NCBI GenBank assembly: GCA_014729505.1
Contig: WJJS01000015.1
Location: 35,300 to 99,299 of the forward strand
Source of the DNA: Candidatus Woesearchaeota archaeon
GTDB lineage: Archaea > Nanobdellota > Nanobdellia > Woesearchaeales > ARS49
DNA length: 64,000 nucleotides
Direction of reading: 5' to 3'
Below, in pieces: positions 12,674 to 49,137 of this stretch (positions are counted from its first letter, which is position 1; each line of letters starts with the position of its first letter). The notes below the pieces were generated by a model, which searched no databases, was not told where the DNA came from, and saw nothing but the letters and a program-made list of their open reading frames with translations. The position numbers and the translations under genes are program-made.

Positions 12674-13073
12674 ACTCTTCAGCCTTGCGCAAGTATTTCT
12701 TAAACACTTCGCGATACAACACTTGGGGCAAATCATCAACTTGTCGTGGAGTGATCCATCTATACTCAGAATGCTCATCAGAAATAACGACATTGTCAGA
12801 AGGACTTTGTGCCAAAAATACATGAGTATGACGAAACAAGTCCTCTGTTTTCACCTCAAAAAATTCAAGTTCATGAATGATCCTGACATCGAGCTGCGTT
12901 TCTTCTCTTACTTCGCGAAGAGCAGCCTTTACAGGATCTTCACCTGACTTTATCTTGCCACCAGGAACTTCCCATCCCTTAAGATGTGCTGCATTATCGT
13001 CGCGAGCTTTCCTGAGAATCAAATACCTATTACCAAAAAACACAAACACCTTCACCTGAAAAATCTTCTTCAT
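12630..13073 (-). CDS. NUDIX hydrolase
   Basis: Nudix box GGKIKSGEDPVKAALREVREETQL; start taken at the internal Met (MKKIF) giving an ATGA overlap with the upstream gene. Confidence 0.8.
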   Translation of the reverse strand: MKKIFQVKVFVFFGNRYLILRKARDDNAAHLKGWEVPGGKIKSGEDPVKAALREVREETQLDVRIIHELEFFEVKTEDLFRHTHVFLAQSPSDNVVISDEHSEYRWITPRQVDDLPQVLYREVFKKYLRKAEEFREQTLTEFLQSKD

Positions 13074-13414
13074 CGATGAGGACGACTCGTGTCCGTATGA
13101 AAAGAATGATGCACTTCCTTTAAGAGAGCGCGAAACGCGGCATGACAAGCCCTACTCAAATCAAAATCATGATGCTTATCCGTCTCAAAATCCCTTGAAG
13201 GACAAGACAAATGAATGTGCAACGAATACTTTTGCTGCGTTCCCTCCTTTTCATAACGCTTAACGTGCACAATAAGAGCGACAGTATTTTTTACAGCATG
13301 CTTAAGCTTTTCAAAATACTCCGTTGACAATGTGTTAACAACATTTTGCTCCTCAGGATCAAGAGCACTAACGCCAACAAACTGAATCCTATCACCTACA
13401 GGTCCTTTTTCCAT
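13070..13414 (-). CDS. possible ribosome hibernation factor (HPF/RaiA-like) small protein
   Basis: 114 aa; C-terminal half resembles the HPF/YfiA fold (VALIVHVKRYEKEGTQQKYSLHIHLS...DFDLSRACHAAFRALLKEV); assignment tentative. Confidence 0.3.
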   Translation of the reverse strand: MEKGPVGDRIQFVGVSALDPEEQNVVNTLSTEYFEKLKHAVKNTVALIVHVKRYEKEGTQQKYSLHIHLSCPSRDFETDKHHDFDLSRACHAAFRALLKEVHHSFHTDTSRPHR

Positions 13415-21038: not shown

Positions 21039-22277
21039 ATGAGAGTATTGATGCTAGGGTGGGAGTTTCCGCCCTACAAAAGCGGCGGTCTGGGAACTGC
21101 GTGCTATGACTTAACAAAAGGTCTGTCAAACCAAGATGTACAAGTCACGTTTGTCATGCCAAAAACGCCAGAAGGTGCAAACGCAGAATTCGTCAAATTG
21201 GTAGGAGCTAACCAACTCACCGGAGATATTACGATCAATTTCTTTTCCACACTCTTACAACCGTACATGACACCAGAACAATACGACGCGGAATATACGT
21301 ATCACACTTCCAAGCAACCAAGTGACAAAGAATTGTACGGCGCAAACATGTACGCAGAAATAGAACGCTACAAAGCAGCCATCTGCAACATAATAAAAAC
21401 AGAACCTTTTGATATTATACATGCACATGATTGGATGACCTACGAAGCAGGAGTACTAGCCAAAGAACTATCAGGAAAACCACTCGTTATCCACCTGCAC
21501 GCCACAGAAGGTGATCGCACAGCAGGACACCCTAACACCTGGATTGCAGAAAAAGAAGCATACGGTTTTACACAAGCAGATCGTATTATCGCAAACAGTA
21601 ATTGGACAAAATCAAACATTATGAAAGAATATTCGGTTAACGCAGAAAAAATAAACGTCGTACACTGGGGGATACGACAAGACAATCCAGCGTACCGCCT
21701 TCGATTTCGCTCAGCACTAAACAAAAAAGACAAAATAGTACTCTCACTTGGACGCATTACCATACAAAAAGGCATAGACTATCTCGTACGCGCAGCAGCA
21801 CATGTAGTCAAACACGTGCCAAACGTCAAGTTTGTCATCGTCGGAAAAGGAGACAAACTCGGAGAAATCATAGGATTAGTCTCAGATCTTGGACTCTCAG
21901 ACAAATTCATCTTTCCAGGATGGCTCAAAGGAGCAGAAGTACATCAAGCATTTCAAATGGCAGACGTATTTGTCATGCCATCAGTCTCAGAACCATTTGG
22001 ACTTGTCGCTCTAGAAAGTCTCAAGAATAACACACCAATAATCATCAGCAAACAAAGCGGCGCCTCAGAAGTGGTACAAAATGCTCTTAAGGTCGATTTT
22101 TGGGACGTACACGCACTCGCAGACAAACTCGTCGGCGTACTCAAGTATCCCCAACTCCATGAAATACTTCAAAAACGAAGTTATCTTGAAGCATTCTCCT
22201 TTGATCTGGACACACCAGCAAAAAAATGCATTGAAATCTATGAATCAGTACTCGCAAAAAGGGAGGCGAAACTATGA
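21039..22277 (+). CDS. glgA: glycogen synthase-like glycosyltransferase (GT-B fold, GlgA-type)
   Basis: N-terminus MRVLMLGWEFPPYKSGGLGTACYDL typical of archaeal/bacterial glycogen/starch synthases; C-terminal GT1 region. Confidence 0.8.
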   Translation: MRVLMLGWEFPPYKSGGLGTACYDLTKGLSNQDVQVTFVMPKTPEGANAEFVKLVGANQLTGDITINFFSTLLQPYMTPEQYDAEYTYHTSKQPSDKELYGANMYAEIERYKAAICNIIKTEPFDIIHAHDWMTYEAGVLAKELSGKPLVIHLHATEGDRTAGHPNTWIAEKEAYGFTQADRIIANSNWTKSNIMKEYSVNAEKINVVHWGIRQDNPAYRLRFRSALNKKDKIVLSLGRITIQKGIDYLVRAAAHVVKHVPNVKFVIVGKGDKLGEIIGLVSDLGLSDKFIFPGWLKGAEVHQAFQMADVFVMPSVSEPFGLVALESLKNNTPIIISKQSGASEVVQNALKVDFWDVHALADKLVGVLKYPQLHEILQKRSYLEAFSFDLDTPAKKCIEIYESVLAKREAKL

Positions 22278-23476
22278 GAACATTATGCTGGTACTTCCAA
22301 GTGCACCAACCCTTTCGCCTGCGACACTATTCGCTCTTTGATATTGGGAATTCCCAAGATTATTTTGATGAACACAAGAATAGAGAAGTCATGAAAAAAG
22401 TCGCACAAAAATGCTATCTTCCAATGAACGCATTGCTGCTCAAACTTATACAACGACACGGTGACGCGTTTAACGTTTCCTTTAGCATCAGCGGCACAGC
22501 ACTCGACCAATTTGAACAATACGCTCCTGAAGTACTTGAAAGTTTCAAACAACTGGTTGCAACAGGCAATGTTGAACTGCTCTCAGAAACATACTATCAC
22601 TCGCTCTCATTTCTCTACGATAAAAAAGAATTCGACGAACAAGTAATAAAACACCGGACACGAATAAAAGAACTCTTCGACTATGAACCGACAGTGTTTC
22701 GCAACACAGAACTCATCTATAGTAACGAAGTAGCACAGCACGCCGCAGCAATGGGTTACAAAGCAATACTGGCGGAAGGAGCAGATCATGCACTGAACGG
22801 AAAAAGCCCAAATTATGTATACACTCCACAAGGAGCAGACATAAAACTCCTACTCAAAAATTATCAATTTAGCGATGATATAGCATTTCGATTCTCAAAC
22901 AAAGGATGGAAAGAACACCCGCTCACCGTCGAGAAATTCGCGGGGTGGCTTGATGCAGTCATGGGAGATTCAGTCAATCTCTTCATGGACTACGAAACAT
23001 TTGGCGAGCACCAATGGGAAGATACGGGCATCTTCAAGTTTATGGAGGCACTACCCTCAACGCTTCTACCACTGGGAACCCGGTTTATCACGCCCAACGA
23101 GCTAGCCACGACGCCACCCCGTGAAACACTCGATATCCCTTTTACCATGAGCTGGGCTGATGTCGAAAGAGATCTCTCAGCATGGTTGGGTAACAAAATG
23201 CAGCTTGATGCCATAGAACGATTATACGCACTCAAAGCAGGAGTGTTTAAGACCGGCAATCCTGCGTTGATCGAGACATGGCGAAAGCTTACAACGAGCG
23301 ATCATTTCTATTATATGTGTGTAAAATGGTTCTCTGATGGAGATGTCCATAAATATTTCAATCCCTACGACAGTCCATACGACGGATTTATCATTTTCAT
23401 GAATGTTCTCAATGACTTAGCCCTGCGTGTAGAGAACGCACAAGAAAAAACATGGCTTACGATAGGAGGTGACTAA
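22274..23476 (+). CDS. glycoside hydrolase family 57 (alpha-amylase / alpha-glucanotransferase-like)
   Basis: GH57 N-terminal signature WYFQVHQP; D-x-E-x-FG region (FMDYETFGEHQWE); ATGA overlap with glgA. Confidence 0.75.
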   Translation: MRTLCWYFQVHQPFRLRHYSLFDIGNSQDYFDEHKNREVMKKVAQKCYLPMNALLLKLIQRHGDAFNVSFSISGTALDQFEQYAPEVLESFKQLVATGNVELLSETYYHSLSFLYDKKEFDEQVIKHRTRIKELFDYEPTVFRNTELIYSNEVAQHAAAMGYKAILAEGADHALNGKSPNYVYTPQGADIKLLLKNYQFSDDIAFRFSNKGWKEHPLTVEKFAGWLDAVMGDSVNLFMDYETFGEHQWEDTGIFKFMEALPSTLLPLGTRFITPNELATTPPRETLDIPFTMSWADVERDLSAWLGNKMQLDAIERLYALKAGVFKTGNPALIETWRKLTTSDHFYYMCVKWFSDGDVHKYFNPYDSPYDGFIIFMNVLNDLALRVENAQEKTWLTIGGD

Positions 23477-30100: not shown

Positions 30101-30994
30101 GTGTTTTCCAAGAGTAGACACATGTATCAAAGAAAGGTGACATCAGTACAACACGTACGATCAGTTGCGATCACAAGCCTTTGTTACGTGGCAACGATCG
30201 CACTACTCTCCCTCCTACTCGTGGAGCATATCGCCTTGGTATTTCTCGGTATGCTCCCCTTTTTACTACATCTCTTTATCAACTTTATCCCCTTTCCAAA
30301 AAAGACCTCGCTACGTATGTGGGCGAGTGCTCCACTTGGCGCACTTGCGCTTTACGCAGTATGGGCGGCAGGTATCCTACCAACAATTAACAACATGGAC
30401 GGGCCTGCAGTCACCGTACTCAACCTCCTCTTTTCTTACGCAGCAAACGGACTAGCACTATTTGCACTGCGCATGCCAGCACGAGTCAAAGTCAAGACCC
30501 GAAAAGAAATCATAGAAGTACCGAAAATAGAAACGAAATACGTGCGCCTGCCCAGCAACGATCAACAATATCAAAAAGAAATAGCGCGCTTACGCACACA
30601 ACTTGCACAACAAGAAACAGTAGAAACATCACTACGAAGCATAGAAGACAAATGCAAATCAATAAATTTTGTGATCGGCAGAGTCTACAGTGACAAAAAT
30701 GGCGGCAGCAAAGAACTGCGCAACACACTTCGCATTGACCGCGAACTCTACAATACCTTTTCAGCATTGACACAAAACCTCGCCGCAGAAGAAGTGCCAA
30801 AGTTACGAAGAGTACTTGGACGATTGCACACCGCTTTACACCGTTTAAAACGTCCGGAAAGCGAACTGATTACAGGGGGTCGACAAGACAGCGTGATCAC
30901 TATTTTAACACAGGACAAAGACCCGGTGCAAGATTACTTTACAGAAGCAACAGAGATTACCTCACGATTACTCAAACAGTTTAGACACAGGTGA
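30101..30994 (+). CDS. membrane protein with C-terminal coiled coil
   Basis: 4 TM helices then a helical/coiled region. Confidence 0.45.
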   Translation: MFSKSRHMYQRKVTSVQHVRSVAITSLCYVATIALLSLLLVEHIALVFLGMLPFLLHLFINFIPFPKKTSLRMWASAPLGALALYAVWAAGILPTINNMDGPAVTVLNLLFSYAANGLALFALRMPARVKVKTRKEIIEVPKIETKYVRLPSNDQQYQKEIARLRTQLAQQETVETSLRSIEDKCKSINFVIGRVYSDKNGGSKELRNTLRIDRELYNTFSALTQNLAAEEVPKLRRVLGRLHTALHRLKRPESELITGGRQDSVITILTQDKDPVQDYFTEATEITSRLLKQFRHR

Positions 30995-31995
30995 CAACAA
31001 TGACAACAATCATATGGTTTGAACACATGTACCAGCCGGCGTGGAACAACAACGCGTACGGCACTTGGGATCCACAACGAATGATACAGGAATGTTATCG
31101 GCCGAATGCCAAACTCATGAAAAAACTCGGTGTCAAAATCAATATGAACATCACCCAAACGATGTATGACTTCTTCAAAGAGAACCATGCACTCGATGTC
31201 TTGGAAATATACAAAGAACTCGGCGCGCAAATAGAATACGTCGGATCAACAGCGCATCACATTCTAGCTATCGATCAATTCGCGCGAGTACTGCCTGCAG
31301 AAATCGAACAACAACATACTTTCATTGAACACTATTTTGGTCAATCGCCAACAACATTCTTCCCACCCGAAATGGCAATTGACAACACTACAGAAACGAC
31401 AGCAAAGAACGCAGGTTACAAAGGATTGATCGTCTCGGGCGGTAAGCCAAACTTTGCCACCTATGAAACAACAGGAGTCTTTGAAAACCAGATAAAGATA
31501 TTTCCACACCACAACAACTTGTCAGGACAATTCGCGTTTCCCGTCAACGGCTTTAGCAGCGATCACGATTTGCAACGCGTCATCGACACTGTAGAACAAT
31601 GCACACTTCCAGTACTATTCGCATTTGATCATGAAAGTTTTGGAGGATACCATAATCCGAACGTCCTCGCCATGAAAAAACGCTTCTTTGAAACAGGAAA
31701 AGAACGAGGATGGAACTTTGTGCACTTTTCGGACTTACTCGATAGTAAATCATATGGTCGTGTCACATTGCAACCAACAACATGGGTAGGTAGTTACGGC
31801 AAATGGGACAAAATGCCAGAGAGAAGCGCAGTAATTACCAAAGCACTTGCAAGCATGACCATGCACAACCAACAATATCTGCGAAAATGGGTGCTGCCTA
31901 GCTGTCATTTACACGTAGATTACGCAACAGACTTATTCTGGAACTATGTGAGAAAAGCACAAATTCCCGCACTGACCGTCAACGCGCAGGACTGA
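30991..31995 (+). CDS. GH57-like / polysaccharide-processing family protein (divergent second copy)
   Basis: N-terminal IWFEHMYQPAW resembles the GH57 HQP motif and FDHESFG parallels the DYETFG region of the upstream GH57; tentative. Confidence 0.4.
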   Translation: MTTMTTIIWFEHMYQPAWNNNAYGTWDPQRMIQECYRPNAKLMKKLGVKINMNITQTMYDFFKENHALDVLEIYKELGAQIEYVGSTAHHILAIDQFARVLPAEIEQQHTFIEHYFGQSPTTFFPPEMAIDNTTETTAKNAGYKGLIVSGGKPNFATYETTGVFENQIKIFPHHNNLSGQFAFPVNGFSSDHDLQRVIDTVEQCTLPVLFAFDHESFGGYHNPNVLAMKKRFFETGKERGWNFVHFSDLLDSKSYGRVTLQPTTWVGSYGKWDKMPERSAVITKALASMTMHNQQYLRKWVLPSCHLHVDYATDLFWNYVRKAQIPALTVNAQD

Positions 31996-32157
31996 AACAT
32001 ATGAAACGTCACTCCATCATTGCACAGCACATACTTCTCTTAACGAAGTCCAGACCCTCTTCGTGCAGCAAAGCCGAAACAACTGTTCGATTACCGGAGT
32101 TTCGCCAATGTTCTGCTGCCAAAACCATTAAATACTTCTTTTCCTCTTTTCCCATAT

Positions 32158-32715
32158 ATGGCTCTATCAAGCATACTGCTCGTGGTGGTGATTATTGCAG
32201 TACTTGTCGGCCTGTTTTTTCTCTACAAAATCGTCACTAAACTCATACGCATTATCATGACCATAGTGCTTGTAGGACTCATAATCGCTGCAGGAATAGG
32301 AGCGTACAGCAGTGCCACCTCATTTTCAGATGCACATCGCCTGTTTCTCTTCACAGAAAACAATACTACACTTGTAGCATTTGAAAAAATGGACGACAAT
32401 AGCAGCGCACTTCTTGACATCCCAAGCAGTACCAGTGCATACGAGTACATCATCACGGTAACACCGCAGGCCTTAGCACATCTCACAGAAGTACAGTTTG
32501 GAGGTGAAGGACGTACTTACAAAGAGATGCTGGAAGTTATCAAAGGCGAGGACAAAAGACGAGCAAGCCTTGCATTTATAGAAACATATGACACTGCAAA
32601 CAAAGGATTATGGATCATCAGACAAATGAAAAAGAGCACGATTGCCGTACAACCATCGCCCTTTGCATTCAGACTCGGCACATGGATGCCAGATTTCGTG
32701 CTCGGGAGCGACTAA
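32158..32715 (+). CDS. membrane protein
   Basis: Two N-terminal TM helices plus a globular region. Confidence 0.4.
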   Translation: MALSSILLVVVIIAVLVGLFFLYKIVTKLIRIIMTIVLVGLIIAAGIGAYSSATSFSDAHRLFLFTENNTTLVAFEKMDDNSSALLDIPSSTSAYEYIITVTPQALAHLTEVQFGGEGRTYKEMLEVIKGEDKRRASLAFIETYDTANKGLWIIRQMKKSTIAVQPSPFAFRLGTWMPDFVLGSD

Positions 32716-33039
32716 ATGGGAATACTCAATAAGATCATGTTTTGGAAAAAAGACGAAGACGAATTCACATTGGACGAACCGGACACTGAAGAAGTGGGTC
32801 CGCCAAAAGACGCCGTACCGCCACCACCAGGCCCGTCGGGAAGCGATCCGATAGTACAACCCATCAAAGAAGCAACACCGCCCCCCGCATTAAGTCCCTC
32901 TGCAGACATGCAACCATCACACTCTGGCAAAAGCCTTGAAAAAGATGTACAAATCATGCAAGCAAAACTCGATTCCATCAATGCAAAACTCGATGCCGTT
33001 CTTTCGCGAATAGAACGCATAGAAAGCAAACGCATATGA
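32716..33039 (+). CDS. Pro-rich / coiled-coil small protein
   Basis: PPPPGPSG linker and C-terminal coiled coil; tightly coupled to the neighbouring genes. Confidence 0.35.
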   Translation: MGILNKIMFWKKDEDEFTLDEPDTEEVGPPKDAVPPPPGPSGSDPIVQPIKEATPPPALSPSADMQPSHSGKSLEKDVQIMQAKLDSINAKLDAVLSRIERIESKRI

Positions 33040-33485
33040 AGCATTCGAGACTTTTTTTTCTTCTTACTGTTCTCATTCTCCTCCTCGATCAGATCACAAA
33101 ATGGATAGTGAGAAGCAGTTTAACAATGGGAGAAAGCATCCCGTTACTGCCGGGAGTCCTGCACTTTACGCGCATACATAATACCGGAGCAGCTTTTGGA
33201 CTGTTACAACACTATACAACAGTACTTATAGTCATCAGTTTTATCGTCTTGATCTTTTTTGTCTATGCCTACCGCGATATCGTAGGACAACAATCAACAA
33301 GCATCTTTGGTGCGCTCATCCTTGCAGGAGCACTCGGTAATCTCATAGACCGATTATTCTTTGGCTATGTCACGGATTTTATTGACTTTCTCATATGGCC
33401 GGCATTCAATATTGCAGATACCGCACTGACTGTGGGAGGAATCAGCGTCGTCGCTTTGTACTTGTTCACCAAAACACTTAAATAA
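33036..33485 (+). CDS. lspA: lipoprotein signal peptidase (signal peptidase II)
   Basis: LspA motifs NTGAAFG, GNLIDR, FNIADTA across 4 TM helices. Confidence 0.8.
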   Translation: MKHSRLFFLLTVLILLLDQITKWIVRSSLTMGESIPLLPGVLHFTRIHNTGAAFGLLQHYTTVLIVISFIVLIFFVYAYRDIVGQQSTSIFGALILAGALGNLIDRLFFGYVTDFIDFLIWPAFNIADTALTVGGISVVALYLFTKTLK

Positions 33486-33511: not shown

Positions 33512-33817
33512 GTGAACAATATTTCCTTAGACCTGTTTTCCATCGTGTATGGCAGCACACAGTTTGCCACTGCACTTCTAGCTCTTGTTGCCATACTCTT
33601 ATCACTTGTCCTTTTTGCACGAGCAAAGCAGGATGCCGCATGGAAACTACTGGCTGTAGGATTCATTCTCTTTGGCATACGCGCGGTCATCGGCGCTTTG
33701 GAAACATTCTCCATTACCAGTGCCCCAGTACTATATGAACTCTCCTTGACAGGAGCATTACTCTTTTTAACAATCGCAGTAGTAGCAAGAATCGCCACAA
33801 AGGGGGCGAGACTATGA
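33512..33817 (+). CDS. small membrane protein
   Basis: 3 TM helices. Confidence 0.3.
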   Translation: MNNISLDLFSIVYGSTQFATALLALVAILLSLVLFARAKQDAAWKLLAVGFILFGIRAVIGALETFSITSAPVLYELSLTGALLFLTIAVVARIATKGARL

Positions 33818-34101
33818 ATCTTGATACTGCATTACTTACTGCCGCACCATTTTTTCACCTGATGCTATTCTTCCTTCTAGGAGGGGTATTCATCGTTCTC
33901 TTGACTTTACGCAAGGAAAAAGAGGTGCTACTGCCGTGGAAAGTCATCTTCGCGGCAGTACTCCTCCTCTTAGTAGAACTCGCCCTAGGCATTGCAGCAG
34001 GGTACAGTGGCAGCATTATCGTCGTACGAGGATTTCTCGACCTTCTTGCAAGCACACTGTTTATCTACGCCATACTCGTACAACTAGAATTACTTCGATA
34101 A
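33814..34101 (+). CDS. small membrane protein
   Basis: 3 TM helices; ATGA-coupled to the previous gene. Confidence 0.3.
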   Translation: MNLDTALLTAAPFFHLMLFFLLGGVFIVLLTLRKEKEVLLPWKVIFAAVLLLLVELALGIAAGYSGSIIVVRGFLDLLASTLFIYAILVQLELLR

Positions 34102-34420: not shown

Positions 34421-35629
34421 ATGTTTCGATTTTTGAAGAAATGGCTGGCAAAACCAGAACACATCGCCTGGGAAGACCTAGAACAGGAACTGCAAAATAG
34501 GGTACAAGAAAAAGAAAAAGAATTCAAAAAACATATTGAAGAACTGAATGTCATGCTCACAACACAAGTGGAACACACCACAAGTCAATGCAGTGAATTT
34601 CTCAAAAAAACACTACACAATGACAAAATCACAAAGCGAGAAAAACAATTCATGCAAGGAAACCGCGAAGCATATGTTAAAGCACTCACGCAATACGTCC
34701 ATCAATTACCCGTATTTTCCCGCCAGAACTTTTTTAACCAAATACAAGAATACAAAGAAAAAAGCACACAATTGGCAGAAAAAGTACAACGACCAAAACA
34801 AATACTCTCACATTTCTTTGCACGAGAACTACGAGAAATAGAAGCGCCGCTAAAAACAGTAGCAGAACAACTGCAACGCATAGAGCACTACTATACTACA
34901 TCACAACTTCAAAGTACTACAGAATTACTTAAGGATCTCAAAACATATGCTGCACAGGTACAAGAAAAAAAGAAAACAACCGAAGCACTAACAAAAAAAA
35001 GAGCAGAATATTCAACACTGCAAAAACGAAAAGAAAAAATCGATGAAAAAATGCAACAATTACGCGACGGAGCCCGACTTAGACAGGCAAAACAAGAGAT
35101 CACACAATTAAAAAAAAGAGTGCAAGATATTCAAGAACAAATAACAGATCTTTTCGCATCGCTTCGCAGTCCTCTAAAAAAATATGCAAAGCAATACCGC
35201 CGGCCACTGGCAGCACAATACAGTCAAGACTCATTAGAAGCACTTTCACAGGATATGGATCTGCGCATAAATACTGTCTTAAAAGAATGCAATGATGCTC
35301 TACATTCTCTTGATCTAAAGCCAGACAAGCTACAGAAAGCACAACAAGCATTCAATGAGGTAACACCCTCCTTACTGTCAACACTACAGCAACAACACGC
35401 ACTGACAACAAAAAGATACGAACAAGCATTACAAGAGCTTCGAGAACATCCAGACATGGTCACACTACAAGATCTCAAAGAGCAACTGGCAATGACAGAA
35501 GATGCGATTACTGCAGTACAGCATGAAATAACCAGTCATGAAAAACAATTACAATCATTTGCCCCAGAATCATTGCACCACTCCATTATCAGACGGGCAC
35601 GAGAACGACTTCGCATAGTTGTTACTTAA
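34421..35629 (+). CDS. long coiled-coil protein
   Basis: 402 aa, almost entirely heptad-like Lys/Glu/Gln-rich helices. Confidence 0.45.
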   Translation: MFRFLKKWLAKPEHIAWEDLEQELQNRVQEKEKEFKKHIEELNVMLTTQVEHTTSQCSEFLKKTLHNDKITKREKQFMQGNREAYVKALTQYVHQLPVFSRQNFFNQIQEYKEKSTQLAEKVQRPKQILSHFFARELREIEAPLKTVAEQLQRIEHYYTTSQLQSTTELLKDLKTYAAQVQEKKKTTEALTKKRAEYSTLQKRKEKIDEKMQQLRDGARLRQAKQEITQLKKRVQDIQEQITDLFASLRSPLKKYAKQYRRPLAAQYSQDSLEALSQDMDLRINTVLKECNDALHSLDLKPDKLQKAQQAFNEVTPSLLSTLQQQHALTTKRYEQALQELREHPDMVTLQDLKEQLAMTEDAITAVQHEITSHEKQLQSFAPESLHHSIIRRARERLRIVVT

Positions 35630-36857
35630 TTTTTTTGCTGCGACGAAGCGCTGTTACTGCAGGCAGTTCAAGACCTGCAACAAGTGTTAAAGCTGCACCG
35701 CCGCCGGTACTCATGAAATCGATGTTTTTAGCAAGACGTAAACGATGTACTGCTGTAGCACTGTCACCGCCGCCAATCACACTAAATGTTTTACTCTTTG
35801 CAATAACCCTACTAATCTGATTTGTCGCCTTTGAAAATTTCGAAACTTCATACCATCCAAGAGGACCATTCCAAAAAAGCGTTTTGGAGCTCTTAACACT
35901 CTTTGAAAAAAGTTCGACTGTTTGAGGACCAACATCAAAACCTGCATGAGTACTCGGAATAGCTGACGAAGAGACAATTACCGCTCTGGAATTCTTATCT
36001 TTAGCAGCAACTACATCAGGAGCAAGAATAATTTTGCCAGGATATGATTGTAGCAACCGACGAGCAAGATCAATCTTATCATCCTCTACAGGGCTCTTAC
36101 CAACAGAACCACCTTGAGCTTTAACAAAAGTAAACAGCATTGCACCGCCAATCAGCACTTTATCAGCTGACTTGAGCAGAGCCTTAAGCACGTCAATCTT
36201 TGAATACACCTTTGCACCACCCAATAACGCGACAAACGGACGTTTAGGCCTGTTTAGCAAAGAACCGAGAACGTCAAGCTCTTCAATTAATCGCAAACCT
36301 GCAAGACCTGGCAAGAATTGAGGAACGCCCACCATAGATGCATGCTTTCGATGACAATTACTAAACGCCTCATTAACATACGCCTGCGCAAGTTGTGACA
36401 ACTGCTTTGCAAAAAGTTTGTCATTAGCTTTCTCCTCAGGATAAAAACGAACATTCTCCAACATGAGGATATCCTTTGGTCCGAGTTTTTGCACTTCCAA
36501 AAGTGTGTGAGCACCAATACAATCAGTTGTATGAAACACTCTCGTCTTGATCAGTTCTGACAATCGCGCTGCGAGCTTTGCTGTTCTGAACCGCTTCTCA
36601 CGATTTTTAGGACGTCCCAAATGCGTCAATAACAAAATCCTGCAGTTCTTTTTTCGCAAATAGGAAATAGTAGGAATCGCGGCACGAATACGATAGTCAG
36701 AAACAAGACGTCCCTTATCATCGAGTGGTTCGTTAAAATCAACACGAACAAGAACGGTTTTGTTCTTCACATTCGCATTAGCAATAGATGTACAATCCAT
36801 CTGAGGACCTCCTTTACTCACTTGATGTGCGCAACCTTTTAAATCTTTTTTTTCCAA
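35622..36857 (-). CDS. pgk: phosphoglycerate kinase
   Basis: VLVRVDFNEPLD N-terminal motif and full PGK length; true start probably the internal Met at 36800. Confidence 0.9.
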   Translation of the reverse strand: MEKKDLKGCAHQVSKGGPQMDCTSIANANVKNKTVLVRVDFNEPLDDKGRLVSDYRIRAAIPTISYLRKKNCRILLLTHLGRPKNREKRFRTAKLAARLSELIKTRVFHTTDCIGAHTLLEVQKLGPKDILMLENVRFYPEEKANDKLFAKQLSQLAQAYVNEAFSNCHRKHASMVGVPQFLPGLAGLRLIEELDVLGSLLNRPKRPFVALLGGAKVYSKIDVLKALLKSADKVLIGGAMLFTFVKAQGGSVGKSPVEDDKIDLARRLLQSYPGKIILAPDVVAAKDKNSRAVIVSSSAIPSTHAGFDVGPQTVELFSKSVKSSKTLFWNGPLGWYEVSKFSKATNQISRVIAKSKTFSVIGGGDSATAVHRLRLAKNIDFMSTGGGAALTLVAGLELPAVTALRRSKKIK

Positions 36858-37995: not shown

Positions 37996-38550
37996 TTAAC
38001 GCCATGAAGAAATAACTTTCCAATTCTTTGCAAGAAATTCCACAAGCGCATAATACGCTTCAAGCGTTGCAACAACCATGGTCCAAAAAACAATAACATA
38101 CATGTATTGAGCAATAAAAGAAGAATAGGGAGCCAAAGCAAAAAGAGCAGAAGCAATAATAATCGTGATCACTTGCAAGCCAAACTTAATCTTGCCACTC
38201 CATTCAGATTTAAGAATAACCCCCTCTGCCTTGACCATACTGCGAATGCCAGTCACCAGATAATCACGAAAGAGCATAAGTATAACAAGCCACATAGGAA
38301 TAATTCCCAAATCCCCGAGAGTAATTAAGGAAAAGGCAACAAGGATCTTATCAACAAACTGGTCATAAAATGCACCAAACTTTGTTTGCAAACCCCTCTT
38401 TCGAGCAATATATCCATCGAGAAAATCAGTAACCCACGCGAGAATAACCAGAAAGGGAACAACCATTCTTGTCAACGGAATATACAAAAAAATCACAATA
38501 AGCGGTACAAGAAGCAAACGAATAGTAACCAGCGTATTAGGAATATTCAT
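37996..38550 (-). CDS. CDP-alcohol phosphatidyltransferase
   Basis: Signature DFLDGYIARKRGLQTKFGAFYDQFVDKI (D-G-x2-AR-x8-G-x3-D-x3-D). Confidence 0.8.
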   Translation of the reverse strand: MNIPNTLVTIRLLLVPLIVIFLYIPLTRMVVPFLVILAWVTDFLDGYIARKRGLQTKFGAFYDQFVDKILVAFSLITLGDLGIIPMWLVILMLFRDYLVTGIRSMVKAEGVILKSEWSGKIKFGLQVITIIIASALFALAPYSSFIAQYMYVIVFWTMVVATLEAYYALVEFLAKNWKVISSWR

Positions 38551-40556: not shown

Positions 40557-40768
40557 ATGATCGCTTGAGCAAGTCAGAGATTTATAAACGTTTCGCGACA
40601 AGTCAGGCGGTGACTGCGCTTTTTGTCAGCTCTTGTTACAGACATCGCTGCATTATGCGCGACGCGCACCTGTTAGCACTTATTGCTACCATGTGCACTG
40701 CCCTGAAATGCGCCAGCTCCTTTGGAGTTGCACAATCCTTAAATAACGCGCTTGTCTTTTTTTGCGTT

Positions 40769-41371
40769 ATGAAAGTGAAGCTAAAGCACCTCGTTGCGTT
40801 AGGGATTTTGATCATTGCCGCCTATCTTGCTTACTGGTATACGATTCCAAGCTATCCAGATATTATTACCCCAAAACCGGATTTTGGCAATCCTGACTCG
40901 CCCATAAAAATCATTGAGTTTTCAGATCTGCAATGTCCTGCATGCGCTCAAGCCCATCCTATTGCAATACAACTACTCGAAGAATACGGAGATGACATCA
41001 GCTTTCAATTCTACCATTTTCCGCTGCGCAGCATACACGCATACGCCCAAAAAGCTGCAGAAGGTGCAGAATGCGCCAATGATCAAGGCATGATGAAAGA
41101 ATATATCGACGCAGCATTCAAAAATAACAACCGATTATCGACAAGCGATCTTAAACTCTATGCGAGCGCACTAGGTATGGACGACACCTTCAATGATTGT
41201 CTTGACAGCGGGGCAAAAGCAGCGCTAGTTGAAAGTGATTACCGAGTCGGCATTTCAAAAGGAGTAAAAGCAACGCCAACATTTTTCATCAATGATGAGA
41301 AAGTTGAACAAGTCACACTGCAGTCTCTAAGAACAAGAATCGAAATGTTACTTGCAAGTGCTAACGCCTAG
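40769..41371 (+). CDS. DsbA-like thiol:disulfide oxidoreductase with N-terminal TM anchor
   Basis: CPAC active site in a thioredoxin fold preceded by one TM helix; start taken at MKVKLKH (40769), since the ORF-track extension to 40565 abuts the tRNA. Confidence 0.7.
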   Translation: MKVKLKHLVALGILIIAAYLAYWYTIPSYPDIITPKPDFGNPDSPIKIIEFSDLQCPACAQAHPIAIQLLEEYGDDISFQFYHFPLRSIHAYAQKAAEGAECANDQGMMKEYIDAAFKNNNRLSTSDLKLYASALGMDDTFNDCLDSGAKAALVESDYRVGISKGVKATPTFFINDEKVEQVTLQSLRTRIEMLLASANA

Positions 41372-46913: not shown

Positions 46914-48473
46914 TTGATAGCAAAAGTTATTATAGTTGTCAGTCCCCTTAAGAAAAAAATGTTGCACAAAAGAGGTAGAACACAACATACTGCAGGAATA
47001 CTGTTCTTGTTTATCATCGTGCTAGCGGCAAATGCCGTCATAGCGTTTCATGGTTCTGAATGTACTACTTTGAGAGATTGTCCAACGTATTGTGTGCAAA
47101 ACATCATTTACGAAGAACCGTCCTGTGTTGAAGGGTATTGCGAATACCATGTTCGCCAGTGTCCTGATAACGAATATTGTTATGTAGAATCCTACTGGCC
47201 AACTGCAGTATACCCGGATCAGGCCCGAACAATTGGAGGACAGCCCTTTTTAAGCGCAACAGAAGCTACTTTTGCATGCAAACCTAAAACAGGAACCACT
47301 TGCGGCAATTTTCGCCTGAATGAGGGCGAAGAATGCGATCCTCCATCCGGATTAGGACAATCCGCTCAATGTGTCATCACTTTAGCAGATCAAGAATTTG
47401 TTGATGAGTACTATGATCAAAAGATGAGCTACACTGATAGCGTGGTATTAGCGCGAATGCAACATTACGGGTGTAATGATCAATGCAAATGCTTCGCTTT
47501 TTTCTGTGGTGACGAAATCGTATCAGATTTTCACACCGCTCCCTCGCCTAAGTACAGAGACGAACCATGGTACGATGAGGGCCTTGAGAAGGATATTGAT
47601 AATGAAGAATGCGACCCTCCGGGAACTCCCCACCCTACAAATCCATCACTGCGCTGTGATGCATACTGTCAATGGAATGAAATCGGTCAAGAATCAGTTC
47701 CGCCTGAATGTCATCGTAACGAAGACTGCGCAAAACGATTTCCTGCTAGGTGCAAAAACGAATTAGAGCTCACCATTCCCTGGTGTAAGGACAGTACATG
47801 CACACAAGGAATCTATGAATGTGATGATGATCAGGAATGCAGAAATGAACCAGAACCGGGATGTTATATCAGAGAATCGCGACCAGCAGAAGAACCTGCA
47901 ACAGAAACAACTTCTGCCTTCCCGCAAACAGTTGAAAAATTACAAAAAGCAATGAAAAACAATACCAAATTTTCTTACCGCGGCATAGAACTGCCCAAAG
48001 GAAACTATCAATTTATTATCACAGACAATGCTGCGTTCGTCGAAAGAAAGTATGCGCTTGACATCACAGAGACAAGCCTGTTATTAACCACCGGTCCTCG
48101 ATCCACTACTCTGGTAACCTCCTCAAAAGACGCGCAGCACGTTCTTGATCTCCTCAATGAAGAATCGTACTTTGTCGCAGCAACATTTGCACAACGGCAC
48201 TTTATACAGAATTCGCCACGTCTGGTCGACAATATAGAGGCAGCAATAACGCGAACACTATCTGCAAACCTCGAACGCCATCAAAACTCAATACTCAGAG
48301 CTCAAGACGTTCGCAATCAGGAACTCCCGCTAGCAAGCGCGGCGATAGAACAAACTACGAGTTTCATAAGAACTGCATTTACTCCCGTTCTCGCTCTGCC
48401 TGATCTTATTAGTAACATTCGCGAACAAATCCAATTACCTGCATCCTTAAGAGGGACTCATGAAATCATCTAA
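46914..48473 (+). CDS. secreted cysteine-rich protein with repeated GEECDPP motifs
   Basis: N-terminal hydrophobic signal/anchor; about 40 Cys; two ...EECDPP... repeats resembling the myxococcal cysteine-rich repeat. Confidence 0.5.
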   Translation: MIAKVIIVVSPLKKKMLHKRGRTQHTAGILFLFIIVLAANAVIAFHGSECTTLRDCPTYCVQNIIYEEPSCVEGYCEYHVRQCPDNEYCYVESYWPTAVYPDQARTIGGQPFLSATEATFACKPKTGTTCGNFRLNEGEECDPPSGLGQSAQCVITLADQEFVDEYYDQKMSYTDSVVLARMQHYGCNDQCKCFAFFCGDEIVSDFHTAPSPKYRDEPWYDEGLEKDIDNEECDPPGTPHPTNPSLRCDAYCQWNEIGQESVPPECHRNEDCAKRFPARCKNELELTIPWCKDSTCTQGIYECDDDQECRNEPEPGCYIRESRPAEEPATETTSAFPQTVEKLQKAMKNNTKFSYRGIELPKGNYQFIITDNAAFVERKYALDITETSLLLTTGPRSTTLVTSSKDAQHVLDLLNEESYFVAATFAQRHFIQNSPRLVDNIEAAITRTLSANLERHQNSILRAQDVRNQELPLASAAIEQTTSFIRTAFTPVLALPDLISNIREQIQLPASLRGTHEII

Positions 48474-49137
48474 TATACTCTTTGAACCATACCGACGTTT
48501 TGGTCACACCTTTACCATAGCTTTGCTGCTTTGTTTTGGAATAGTATTTTTTACTTTAGCAGAAGGAGCGCGATTCGCTTCGTATCTCGGGGTGATTCAG
48601 GACACGGTAGTATCAATTATTGTTCAAACAGTATTACTACTTGGAGGAATGCTGTTTTTCATATACTTTCTAGGATTGCTCTTTGCACCTACGCGCAGAC
48701 ATAAGAACAGCATATCCGAGACAGGCGTAAAACTATTTTTTGTTATTTCTATCTATCTCGTCATGTACTCTCTGGCTTTCTTCATTCCAACGATTGCAGG
48801 AACCATCTTTCGATGGATACTCCTCGCATTTTTACTGGTGTTTTTACCCTACATACTGCTGCGCGTCACTACCGGACGCTTTATGGACGCTTTTGCGTAT
48901 GGTACTCTTTTTTCAGGCATTACTAAAAAGTATTTCCTCACATGGCTACAACTCATTCCACTTCTTGGGCTCTACTGTGGTATTCTTGCCGGATTAAGCG
49001 CATTGCTGTTGCGAATACCTGTGGGTCAAACAATGTTTATTGCAGTCTATGCTGTCGGCATATTTCTTTGTTGTGTGTTAATCAGTGCAGGACTCCTCTC
49101 TGCAGTAGCATTGTTGCGGACTGCAAAACACCACTAA
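48460..49137 (+). CDS. polytopic membrane protein
   Basis: 6 TM helices. Confidence 0.4.
   Translation: MKSSNILFEPYRRFGHTFTIALLLCFGIVFFTLAEGARFASYLGVIQDTVVSIIVQTVLLLGGMLFFIYFLGLLFAPTRRHKNSISETGVKLFFVISIYLVMYSLAFFIPTIAGTIFRWILLAFLLVFLPYILLRVTTGRFMDAFAYGTLFSGITKKYFLTWLQLIPLLGLYCGILAGLSALLLRIPVGQTMFIAVYAVGIFLCCVLISAGLLSAVALLRTAKHH

Follow-up and report, generated by a model that had tools for sequence, protein, structure and literature searches.

The 64,000-nucleotide stretch of contig WJJS01000015.1 analysed here (hereafter the window), from a Candidatus Woesearchaeota archaeon, encodes on its forward strand, at 33036-33485, a lipoprotein signal peptidase (LspA; signal peptidase II, MEROPS family A8). 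Judged by its sequence, this is a full-length LspA with its active-site residues intact, and it stands in a gene order that recurs in related archaea, directly behind the genes of two uncharacterised protein families. The original prediction had read it as a bacterial gene in an archaeon. The enzyme is indeed of the bacterial type, and a bacterial origin is plausible; what did not hold is the notion of an isolated or recent arrival, considering the native composition of the gene, its archaea-specific surroundings and its co-divergence with its neighbours. We consider it likely, though well short of certain, that this LspA acts as a signal peptidase II on exported lipobox proteins.

The identity of the open reading frame (ORF) is carried by several lines of comparison. 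Starting with ATG and opening with MKHSRLFFLL, its 149-amino-acid translation matches Pfam PF01252 (Peptidase_A8) over model positions 2-141 of 142 (E=3e-37, 128.4 bits against a cutoff of 25), and the NCBIfam lspA equivalog TIGR00077 at 103.2 bits (cutoff 73.95). It also matches the solved LspA structures 6ryo (3.6e-23), 9emz (8e-20) and 5dir (1.1e-19), and resembles these bacterial enzymes (6RYO from S. aureus, 5DIR from P. aeruginosa, and 9EMZ) in full-length homology, in size, in its conserved motifs and in its four hydrophobic segments, which start at residues 6, 52, 90 and 126 according to a hydropathy scan, a crude guide compared with a dedicated topology predictor. The three signatures named at the outset are all present, NTGAAFG at residues 49-55, GNLIDR at 101-106 and FNIADTA at 124-130, and to these we can add VTDFI, which was not listed then and contains D114. 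Both D114 and the D128 of FNIAD align with the matching aspartates of 6ryo and 9emz; in the published P. aeruginosa and S. aureus structures, these two residues (of V-x-D-F and F-N-x-A-D) form the catalytic dyad.

Conservation across the family can be read from an alignment of 200 LspA sequences, made up of an archaeal group of 19 (10 of them verified as archaeal by their genomic context) and 181 comparison sequences, mostly bacterial, of which 73 come from named bacterial loci and the others are unlabelled database matches. The family-invariant D-Q-x-x-K of the first transmembrane (TM) segment, N-x-G-A-A-F-G and G-N-L-x-D-R are all found in the window protein, which holds D18, Q19, K22, N49, G51, F54, G55, G98, G101, N102, D105 and R106; at columns at least 90% conserved in the comparison set it has the expected residue throughout, except for S129 to T and I131 to L. 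The equivalents of D114 and D128 are conserved in all 181 comparison sequences, and the whole archaeal group keeps D18, K22, G51, N102, D105, R106, D114, F124, N125 and D128, with N49 kept in 18 of the 19. A search for signature residues specific to the archaeal clade returned weak ones only, chiefly a glycine for alanine at position 53 of the NxGAAFG motif, present in about half of the archaeal group and in none of the 181 comparison sequences.

The archaeal context proposed for the gene is borne out by Pfam scans of some 70 ORFs of the window, which recover Cdc6/Orc1, aIF5B, Gins51, Nre, a Hel308-type helicase (with archaeal helicase domain 4) and an ATP-dependent DNA ligase; FtsZ is likewise encoded. 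The gene for ribosomal protein S8e lies 4.8 kb upstream of lspA and that for the RNase P subunit Rpp21, convergent, 600 nt downstream, and archaeal markers flank LspA on both sides within 0.6-5 kb. GenBank has an identical protein, MBD3319013.1 ('signal peptidase II [Candidatus Woesearchaeota archaeon]'), encoded on a contig of 100,137 bp, with GF342_03820 as the gene upstream in the same metagenome-assembled genome (MAG). The comparison of base composition and codon usage that had been suggested as a check finds lspA typical of the window, with no sign of recent import: its guanine-plus-cytosine (GC) content is 0.422 (z=-0.72), its GC at third codon positions (GC3) 0.440 (z=+0.85) and its synonymous-codon log-likelihood at z=-0.18, all against 73 window genes, and the GC profile is flat across the whole window. 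Since the composition of lspA lies within one standard deviation and the surrounding GC is flat, contamination, chimerism or recent transfer are very unlikely.

Could the gene nevertheless be a recent horizontal acquisition, or a piece of bacterial DNA that entered an archaeal contig through faulty assembly or binning? What would suggest so is that the best single database match, P0014, is bacterial, sitting in an ftsQA ... ileS-dksA-lspA-lgt-rluD ... mreBCD context. This match shares 54% identity with the window protein, however, and nothing closer exists among 5.8 billion clustered proteins. Added to the native composition and codon usage, the lspA start codon overlaps an archaea-specific upstream gene, the archaeal markers flank it on one and the same contig, and the arrangement is repeated in 12 further independent archaeal assemblies, which together leave this explanation effectively refuted.

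This repeated arrangement emerged from archaeal loci gathered from a scan of one genome per GTDB species (80 best loci), from metagenomic matches and from members of the TM-protein family described below. Archaeal MAGs account for seven of the 80 best LspA loci: L003, L004 and L008, labelled Woesearchaeota, whose LspA proteins are 44-52% identical to that of the window; L013, labelled 'uncultured archaeon'; and L009, L010 and L044, labelled 'uncultured Methanosarcinales'. Two unnamed metagenomic LspA proteins of the same tree group are also found in archaeal contexts (eIF-1A, S8e, archaeal ATPase). The order that these loci share is a TM protein of about 220-265 amino acids, then a small protein of about 105-145 amino acids, then LspA, the stop codon of one gene usually overlapping the start of the next. 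In the window, a membrane-anchored protein of 185 amino acids (32158..32715, forward strand; hereafter the TM protein) is followed by a small soluble protein of 107 amino acids with an FWKK motif and coiled coil (32716..33039, forward strand), directly upstream of LspA; read directly, the first junction is a TAA followed at once by ATG and the second an ATGA overlap. As these first three genes abut or overlap, their products may well be translated together.

In searches of the gathered loci with family hidden Markov models (HMMs), all 13 archaeal loci have the small-protein gene immediately ahead of lspA, and the family is found in none of the 74 bacterial lspA loci. Ten of the 13 also encode the TM protein (11 of 14 if we count L088, which ends before LspA), which is again absent from all 74 bacterial loci; the exceptions are L010, where a hairpin remnant of 76 amino acids is all that is left, and L013 and L083, which have no TM protein. 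The same picture is met when starting from the TM-protein family, of which we examined four members spread down the match list: P0124 (TM protein, small protein, LspA, then eIF-1A), P0200 (S8e ... TM protein, small protein, LspA), P0250 (the trio with eIF-1A and diphthamide synthase, on a contig of 1.0 Mb) and P0150, whose contig stops just past the small-protein gene. The wider synteny recurs as well, with S8e upstream, an HhH-GPD glycosylase just ahead of the cluster and eIF-1A downstream, and the archaeal neighbours across these loci include eIF-1A, S8e, diphthamide synthase, LSM and HhH-GPD. Bacterial lspA loci show ileS-lspA-lgt instead: in the locus of an uncultured bacterium (L001) that holds the closest LspA, the cluster reads ileS-(dksA-like)-lspA-lgt-rluD, whereas the archaeal order reads (S8e ...) HhH-GPD glycosylase, TM protein, small protein, LspA, ... 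eIF-1A, and neighbours of the ileS, dksA-like, lgt or rluD type occur in none of the archaeal loci.

The pairwise identity matrix of LspA correlates with that of the TM protein (Mantel r=0.73, p=2e-4) and with that of the small protein (Mantel r=0.34, p=0.016), which indicates that LspA and its two partner genes diverged together. With partners confined to archaea and co-divergence among the three, we favour a gene gained long ago and since passed down vertically in a DPANN-specific operon over recent transfer. As to the donor, the closest named non-archaeal relatives are bacterial (Omnitrophota, Chloroflexota and others, at 47-54% identity, with Clostridia also among the named matches), which makes a bacterial origin by horizontal transfer plausible, in agreement with Harris & Goldman 2021, who found 82 archaeal LspA matches, all in uncultured or unclassified taxa, and ascribed them to a few transfers (PMC7987157). 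One or two ancient acquisitions from Bacteria would be the most economical origin. In a neighbour-joining tree of 203 LspA sequences (144 columns, 200 bootstraps), the window protein falls into a group of 19 members, 10 of which are the context-verified archaeal sequences while the others are unlabelled metagenomic ones, with no named bacterium among them. A placement within a native archaeal clade, which the original prediction had held to speak against transfer, is given by synteny, the sequence tree taken alone being weak.

The two partner families deserve a closer look, as neither the TM protein nor the small protein matches any Pfam or NCBIfam model. Clustered at 50%, the TM-protein family numbers 691 representatives in an exhaustive HMMER search; nearly all are full length, and 273 score E<=1e-10. 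Exhaustive searching was needed, as word-indexed searches with the whole protein or with its soluble domain returned three proteins each. Near-invariant in the family are D52 and P178, and a K-x-GNI-x-IYPET motif also stands out. The window copy is shortened and divergent, with 185 amino acids against the typical 220-265, an internal stretch of about 50 amino acids missing, and STIAVQPSP where the family has GNIxIYPET (QPSP for YPET). It has two N-terminal hydrophobic segments with a K/R-rich loop between them, followed by an alpha/beta domain. Its AlphaFold2 model, computed from a 123-sequence alignment, reaches a predicted local distance difference test score (pLDDT) of 95.7, compared with an unusable 47 from an alignment of three sequences; it consists of an N-terminal helical region (residues 2-58) that carries the two hydrophobic stretches and the K/R-rich loop, and then a compact alpha/beta domain. 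By the positive-inside rule this domain would face outward, on the same side as the LspA active site.

What such a domain does is harder to say. Foldseek returned resemblances to the LytR-CpsA-Psr (LCP) and SCP2 sterol-carrier folds, which are marginal, their E-values not being significant. LCP enzymes use conserved arginines for pyrophosphate binding, and we rejected the TM protein as an LCP phosphotransferase, given 8% identity, no Pfam LCP match and no conserved arginines. Going by the model, a lipid- or substrate-handling domain is possible, and we would not go further than this. The small protein is built of an N-terminal FWKKKE-like amphipathic motif, a Pro/Glu/Gly-rich low-complexity linker of variable length, and a conserved C-terminal helix whose alignment consensus reads KD-x-Q-x-x-x-AKLD-x-IKA-x-LD-x-INQRL-x-x-x-ER, the helix being given for the window gene as AKLDxIxAxLDxxxxRIExIE; with no hydrophobic segment, it is presumably cytoplasmic or peripherally membrane-bound.

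How might such a module work? Archaeal lipoproteins are lipidated by AliA and AliB, described in Haloferax volcanii (arCOG02177/02178; Hong et al. 2025, PMC12462473), which are unrelated to the bacterial enzyme Lgt at a detectable sequence level; they resemble LspA in acting on lipobox substrates and have been reported in DPANN, but have no sequence relationship to LspA, of which Haloferax has no homologue. The downstream signal peptidase, responsible for the step that LspA performs in bacteria, is explicitly given as unidentified (PMC12462473). The archaeal modification is a diphytanylglyceryl group on the Cys+1 residue (PMC13251419), and lipobox proteins are predicted to be prevalent in DPANN (PMC12462473). 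We propose that an ancestor within DPANN (Woesearchaeota, or GTDB Nanoarchaeota) gained lspA long ago, most likely from Bacteria, and that the gene has since been passed on vertically within an archaea-specific operon, which in the window would run from a TATA-like box through the TM protein, the small protein and LspA to two small membrane proteins. LspA would be embedded in the cytoplasmic membrane, its two catalytic aspartates close to the outer leaflet, and would cut the lipobox signal peptide just before the lipid-modified cysteine, as bacterial LspA does. With no lgt near any archaeal copy, the lipid would probably be attached by a non-Lgt enzyme, for instance one of the AliA/AliB type yielding diphytanylglyceryl-Cys. 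The two conserved partners would act together with LspA, and the TM protein, whose fold bears a faint likeness to lipid-binding domains, may handle lipid or substrate on the outer face. We hold this account to be likely, though far from certain. Going a step further, this canonical LspA, working without Lgt, may be the archaeal lipoprotein signal peptidase for proteins bearing an archaeal (diphytanylglyceryl-type) lipid added by AliA/AliB-like or other enzymes, in a three-protein module where the lipid-binding-like TM protein and the small protein adapt the bacterial enzyme to the archaeal membrane; this further reading we put forward tentatively, as less likely than not.

A number of observations weigh against the main account. 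In terms of descent, the bootstrapped distance tree does not resolve archaeal LspA as monophyletic: L009, L086 and L089 form a separate trio, the smallest labelled clade around the window protein contains archaea alone in 106 of 200 bootstraps, archaea and bacteria together in 67 and bacteria alone in 27, and the sequence most similar to this protein in pairwise identity is bacterial (0.52, compared with at most 0.47 for archaeal copies). Such weak support is unsurprising for a membrane protein of 149 amino acids at ~40-50% identity, and because of it the common descent of the archaeal copies rests on synteny and co-divergence and not on the tree. In terms of the module, the altered TM protein may mean that it is partly degenerate in the window, the role of this partner having been relaxed while LspA and the small protein stay intact. 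In terms of function, an Lgt HMM built from nine Lgt proteins encoded beside bacterial lspA, which recovers all nine at E<1e-90, finds no lgt in the window (best E=1.5) and no significant match in 13 other archaeal loci covering ~130 kb (best E=0.057, 6 bits); with the window included, the search covered about 195 kb from archaea. Nor did a lipobox heuristic (a charged N-region, a hydrophobic core and [LVIFMA][ASTVIGL][GAS]C with the cysteine at position 14-40) find any credible lipobox gene in the window, whose four or five exported proteins bear ordinary signal peptides or TM anchors.

The original prediction had named the absence of any lgt or lipobox proteins as a sign of a non-canonical role, and this absence is half of what we see: neither turns up in the window and lgt is missing from the related loci, while lipobox candidates do occur in two of the latter. 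These are a protein in L004 (3455-3895, minus strand; MKKIILIGILFMMIFLVTGC followed by K) and an ice-binding protein in L086 (1681-2646; ...LLLLAVAC followed by A), both within 3 kb of LspA, and under one heuristic the density of such genes is similar in archaeal loci (3 per 195 kb) and bacterial ones (11 per 759 kb). One might ask whether the enzyme has been repurposed as an active aspartyl intramembrane protease for non-lipoprotein substrates, such as unlipidated signal peptides or small membrane-anchored precursors, with the partners defining substrate or regulation. Besides the window's lack of a lipobox gene, it would fit this idea that lgt lies near none of the 13 archaeal copies, as opposed to within a few kb in 9 of 74 bacterial loci, that LspA has acquired obligatory new partners absent from bacterial loci, that about half of the archaeal group carries Gly53 where the 181 comparison sequences never do, and that in L008 and L010 lspA is followed directly by arrays of paralogous genes for small exported proteins. 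Yet the residues that define the bacterial active site and substrate cradle are all retained, textbook lipobox proteins stand beside LspA in related archaea, the arrayed paralogues have no cysteine at the expected site, and DPANN are predicted to be lipoprotein-rich (PMC12462473). We see repurposing as rather unlikely.

The arrays themselves, at 6536-8270 in L008 and 6624-11089 in L010, comprise 3 to 7 paralogous small proteins of ~125-195 amino acids. Their N-termini are near-identical (M..E..KGIALAILGIVAVIAIIGLVLMF) and resemble class III (pilin-type) signal peptides; in neither locus do the array proteins place a cysteine at the lipobox position or match a Pfam family.

Alternatively, the full bacterial pathway could be in place, with lgt elsewhere in the genome and LspA acting on Lgt-modified proteins. 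The donor for bacterial Lgt is a head-group lipid made by PgsA, and a weak hint in this direction is a CDP-alcohol phosphatidyltransferase gene at 37996-38550 on the minus strand, 4.5 kb from LspA, which scores just over the cutoff of the bacterial pgsA equivalog TIGR00560 (110.3 bits against 109.1) and lower, at 56 bits, with the archaetidylinositol-phosphate synthase model. DPANN genomes also contain many bacterial-type genes, and in bacteria lgt is often non-adjacent to lspA, being not nearby in 64 of 74 loci. As archaeal PgsA relatives make archaetidyl lipids, however, the pgsA-like match does not discriminate; no lgt occurs in the ~195 kb from these lineages; and Lgt was reported absent from archaea in surveys of RefSeq and arCOG genomes (PMC13251419, PMC12462473). 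A complete Lgt-LspA pathway in this organism strikes us as improbable. The sole Lgt-sized polytopic protein of unknown function in the window is a 225-amino-acid product with about seven hydrophobic segments (48460-49137, forward strand), which belongs to no Pfam or NCBIfam family. Another gene of the superfamily to which that at 37996-38550 belongs lies immediately and divergently upstream of the LspA cluster in L090 (4312-4947, minus strand).

The remaining parts of the cluster in the window can be described briefly. A gap of 162 nt on the 3' side of the upstream GH57-like gene is the sole sizeable intergenic space ahead of it, and here, read from the sequence, an A/T-rich TATA-like element (ATTAAATA after AAAACC, 32127..32137, forward strand) lies ~25 nt upstream of the first gene; it is a possible archaeal promoter for a near-leaderless transcript. 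Downstream, and 26 nt 3' of LspA, starts a small membrane protein of 101 amino acids (33512..33817, forward strand), which is probably on the same transcript. It has no significant Pfam or NCBIfam match, and we set it aside as an LspA or Lgt relative, putting its scores (E=0.017 with an LspA-subfamily model, E=2.8 with the Lgt HMM) down to hydrophobic-composition noise. Overlapping it by 4 nt is a second small membrane protein of 95 amino acids with three hydrophobic segments (33814..34101, forward strand), the last of the same-strand run and convergent with Rpp21. Homologues of both were seen only in the Woesearchaeote locus L008 (E=7e-15 for the first, 2 kb downstream of the L008 LspA, and E=2e-7 for the second), and the linkage of the first to LspA is weakly conserved.

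Some of the related loci are of interest in their own right. L009, L010 and L044 (GTDB representative MAGs CAYHOF01, CAYGYR01 and CAZGIN01) bear the DPANN-type LspA cluster despite their Methanosarcinales titles. These labels are probably wrong: the L010 LspA is sister to that of the Woesearchaeote L008 with 96% bootstrap support, which makes the assignment doubtful. The S8e of L044 is 50% identical to that of the window, and L009 stands out with 57% GC. L090 (ENA ERZ27247363, contig k141_3083672, 1,007,146 bp) has the LspA cluster on a single contig that is probably a near-complete DPANN genome.

Elsewhere in the window, the TM-anchored DsbA-like CPAC oxidoreductase that had been predicted is confirmed, with Thioredoxin_4/DSBA domains, the CPAC motif and a single N-terminal TM anchor; its ORF spans 40565-41371 on the forward strand, the real start probably being the Met at 40769. 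Among NCBIfam models it comes closest to a bacterial thioredoxin-like (seleno)lipoprotein family (E=1e-16, below cutoff), though the protein has no lipobox here. The HPF-like protein proposed at 13070-13414 found no support: this is a 114-amino-acid ORF on the minus strand with no Pfam or NCBIfam match at E<=0.001, and the plus-strand frame has stops. A phosphoglycerate kinase (35622-36857, minus strand), whose best NCBIfam match is the bacterial Thermotoga-type bifunctional phosphoglycerate kinase/triosephosphate isomerase (E=2e-130, kinase part only), may be a further gene of bacterial type on this archaeal contig; next to it lies a 402-amino-acid coiled-coil protein without family (34421-35629). 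At 21039-23476 on the forward strand, a glycogen/starch-synthase-like glycosyltransferase of the GT4/GT5 type is followed by a glycoside hydrolase of family 57 (GH57), and a second, divergent GH57-like paralogue (30991-31995, forward strand; E=2e-8 between the pair) lies just upstream of the LspA cluster. Together these resemble a small gene set for the metabolism of alpha-glucans, here in a DPANN genome.

Where does this leave the archaeal enzyme with respect to its known counterparts? It differs from bacterial LspA in its archaeal host, in being unlinked to ileS or lgt, in a start that overlaps the gene of an archaea-specific small protein, in sharing at most 54% identity with any of them, and in the glycine that replaces a near-invariant Ala53 in half of the archaeal group. 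The presence of LspA in archaea is not new in itself, as the gene has been annotated automatically and homologues in MAGs were mentioned in 2021 (PMC7987157). It still contradicts reviews and recent papers, among them that on AliA/AliB, which hold that homologues of signal peptidase II and Lgt are missing from archaea and that the peptidase for archaeal lipoproteins has yet to be identified (PMC6098224, PMC7613921, PMC12462473). In the searchable literature we came across no account of the strict linkage to two uncharacterised archaeal families, of evidence for long vertical inheritance or of the apparent lack of a nearby lgt.

The significance of these findings is limited in that the enzyme is an ordinary one, and that its archaeal homologues had already been noted and ascribed to transfer (PMC7987157). 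What they add is that one widespread group of uncultured archaea keeps an intact LspA, under purifying selection, inside a conserved operon of its own. Two uncharacterised protein families now become approachable through their strict linkage to a known enzyme, and the locus is a natural setting in which to test whether cysteines modified with ether lipids are substrates for LspA. It is also a concrete, clonable candidate for the maturation of lipoproteins in at least some archaea.

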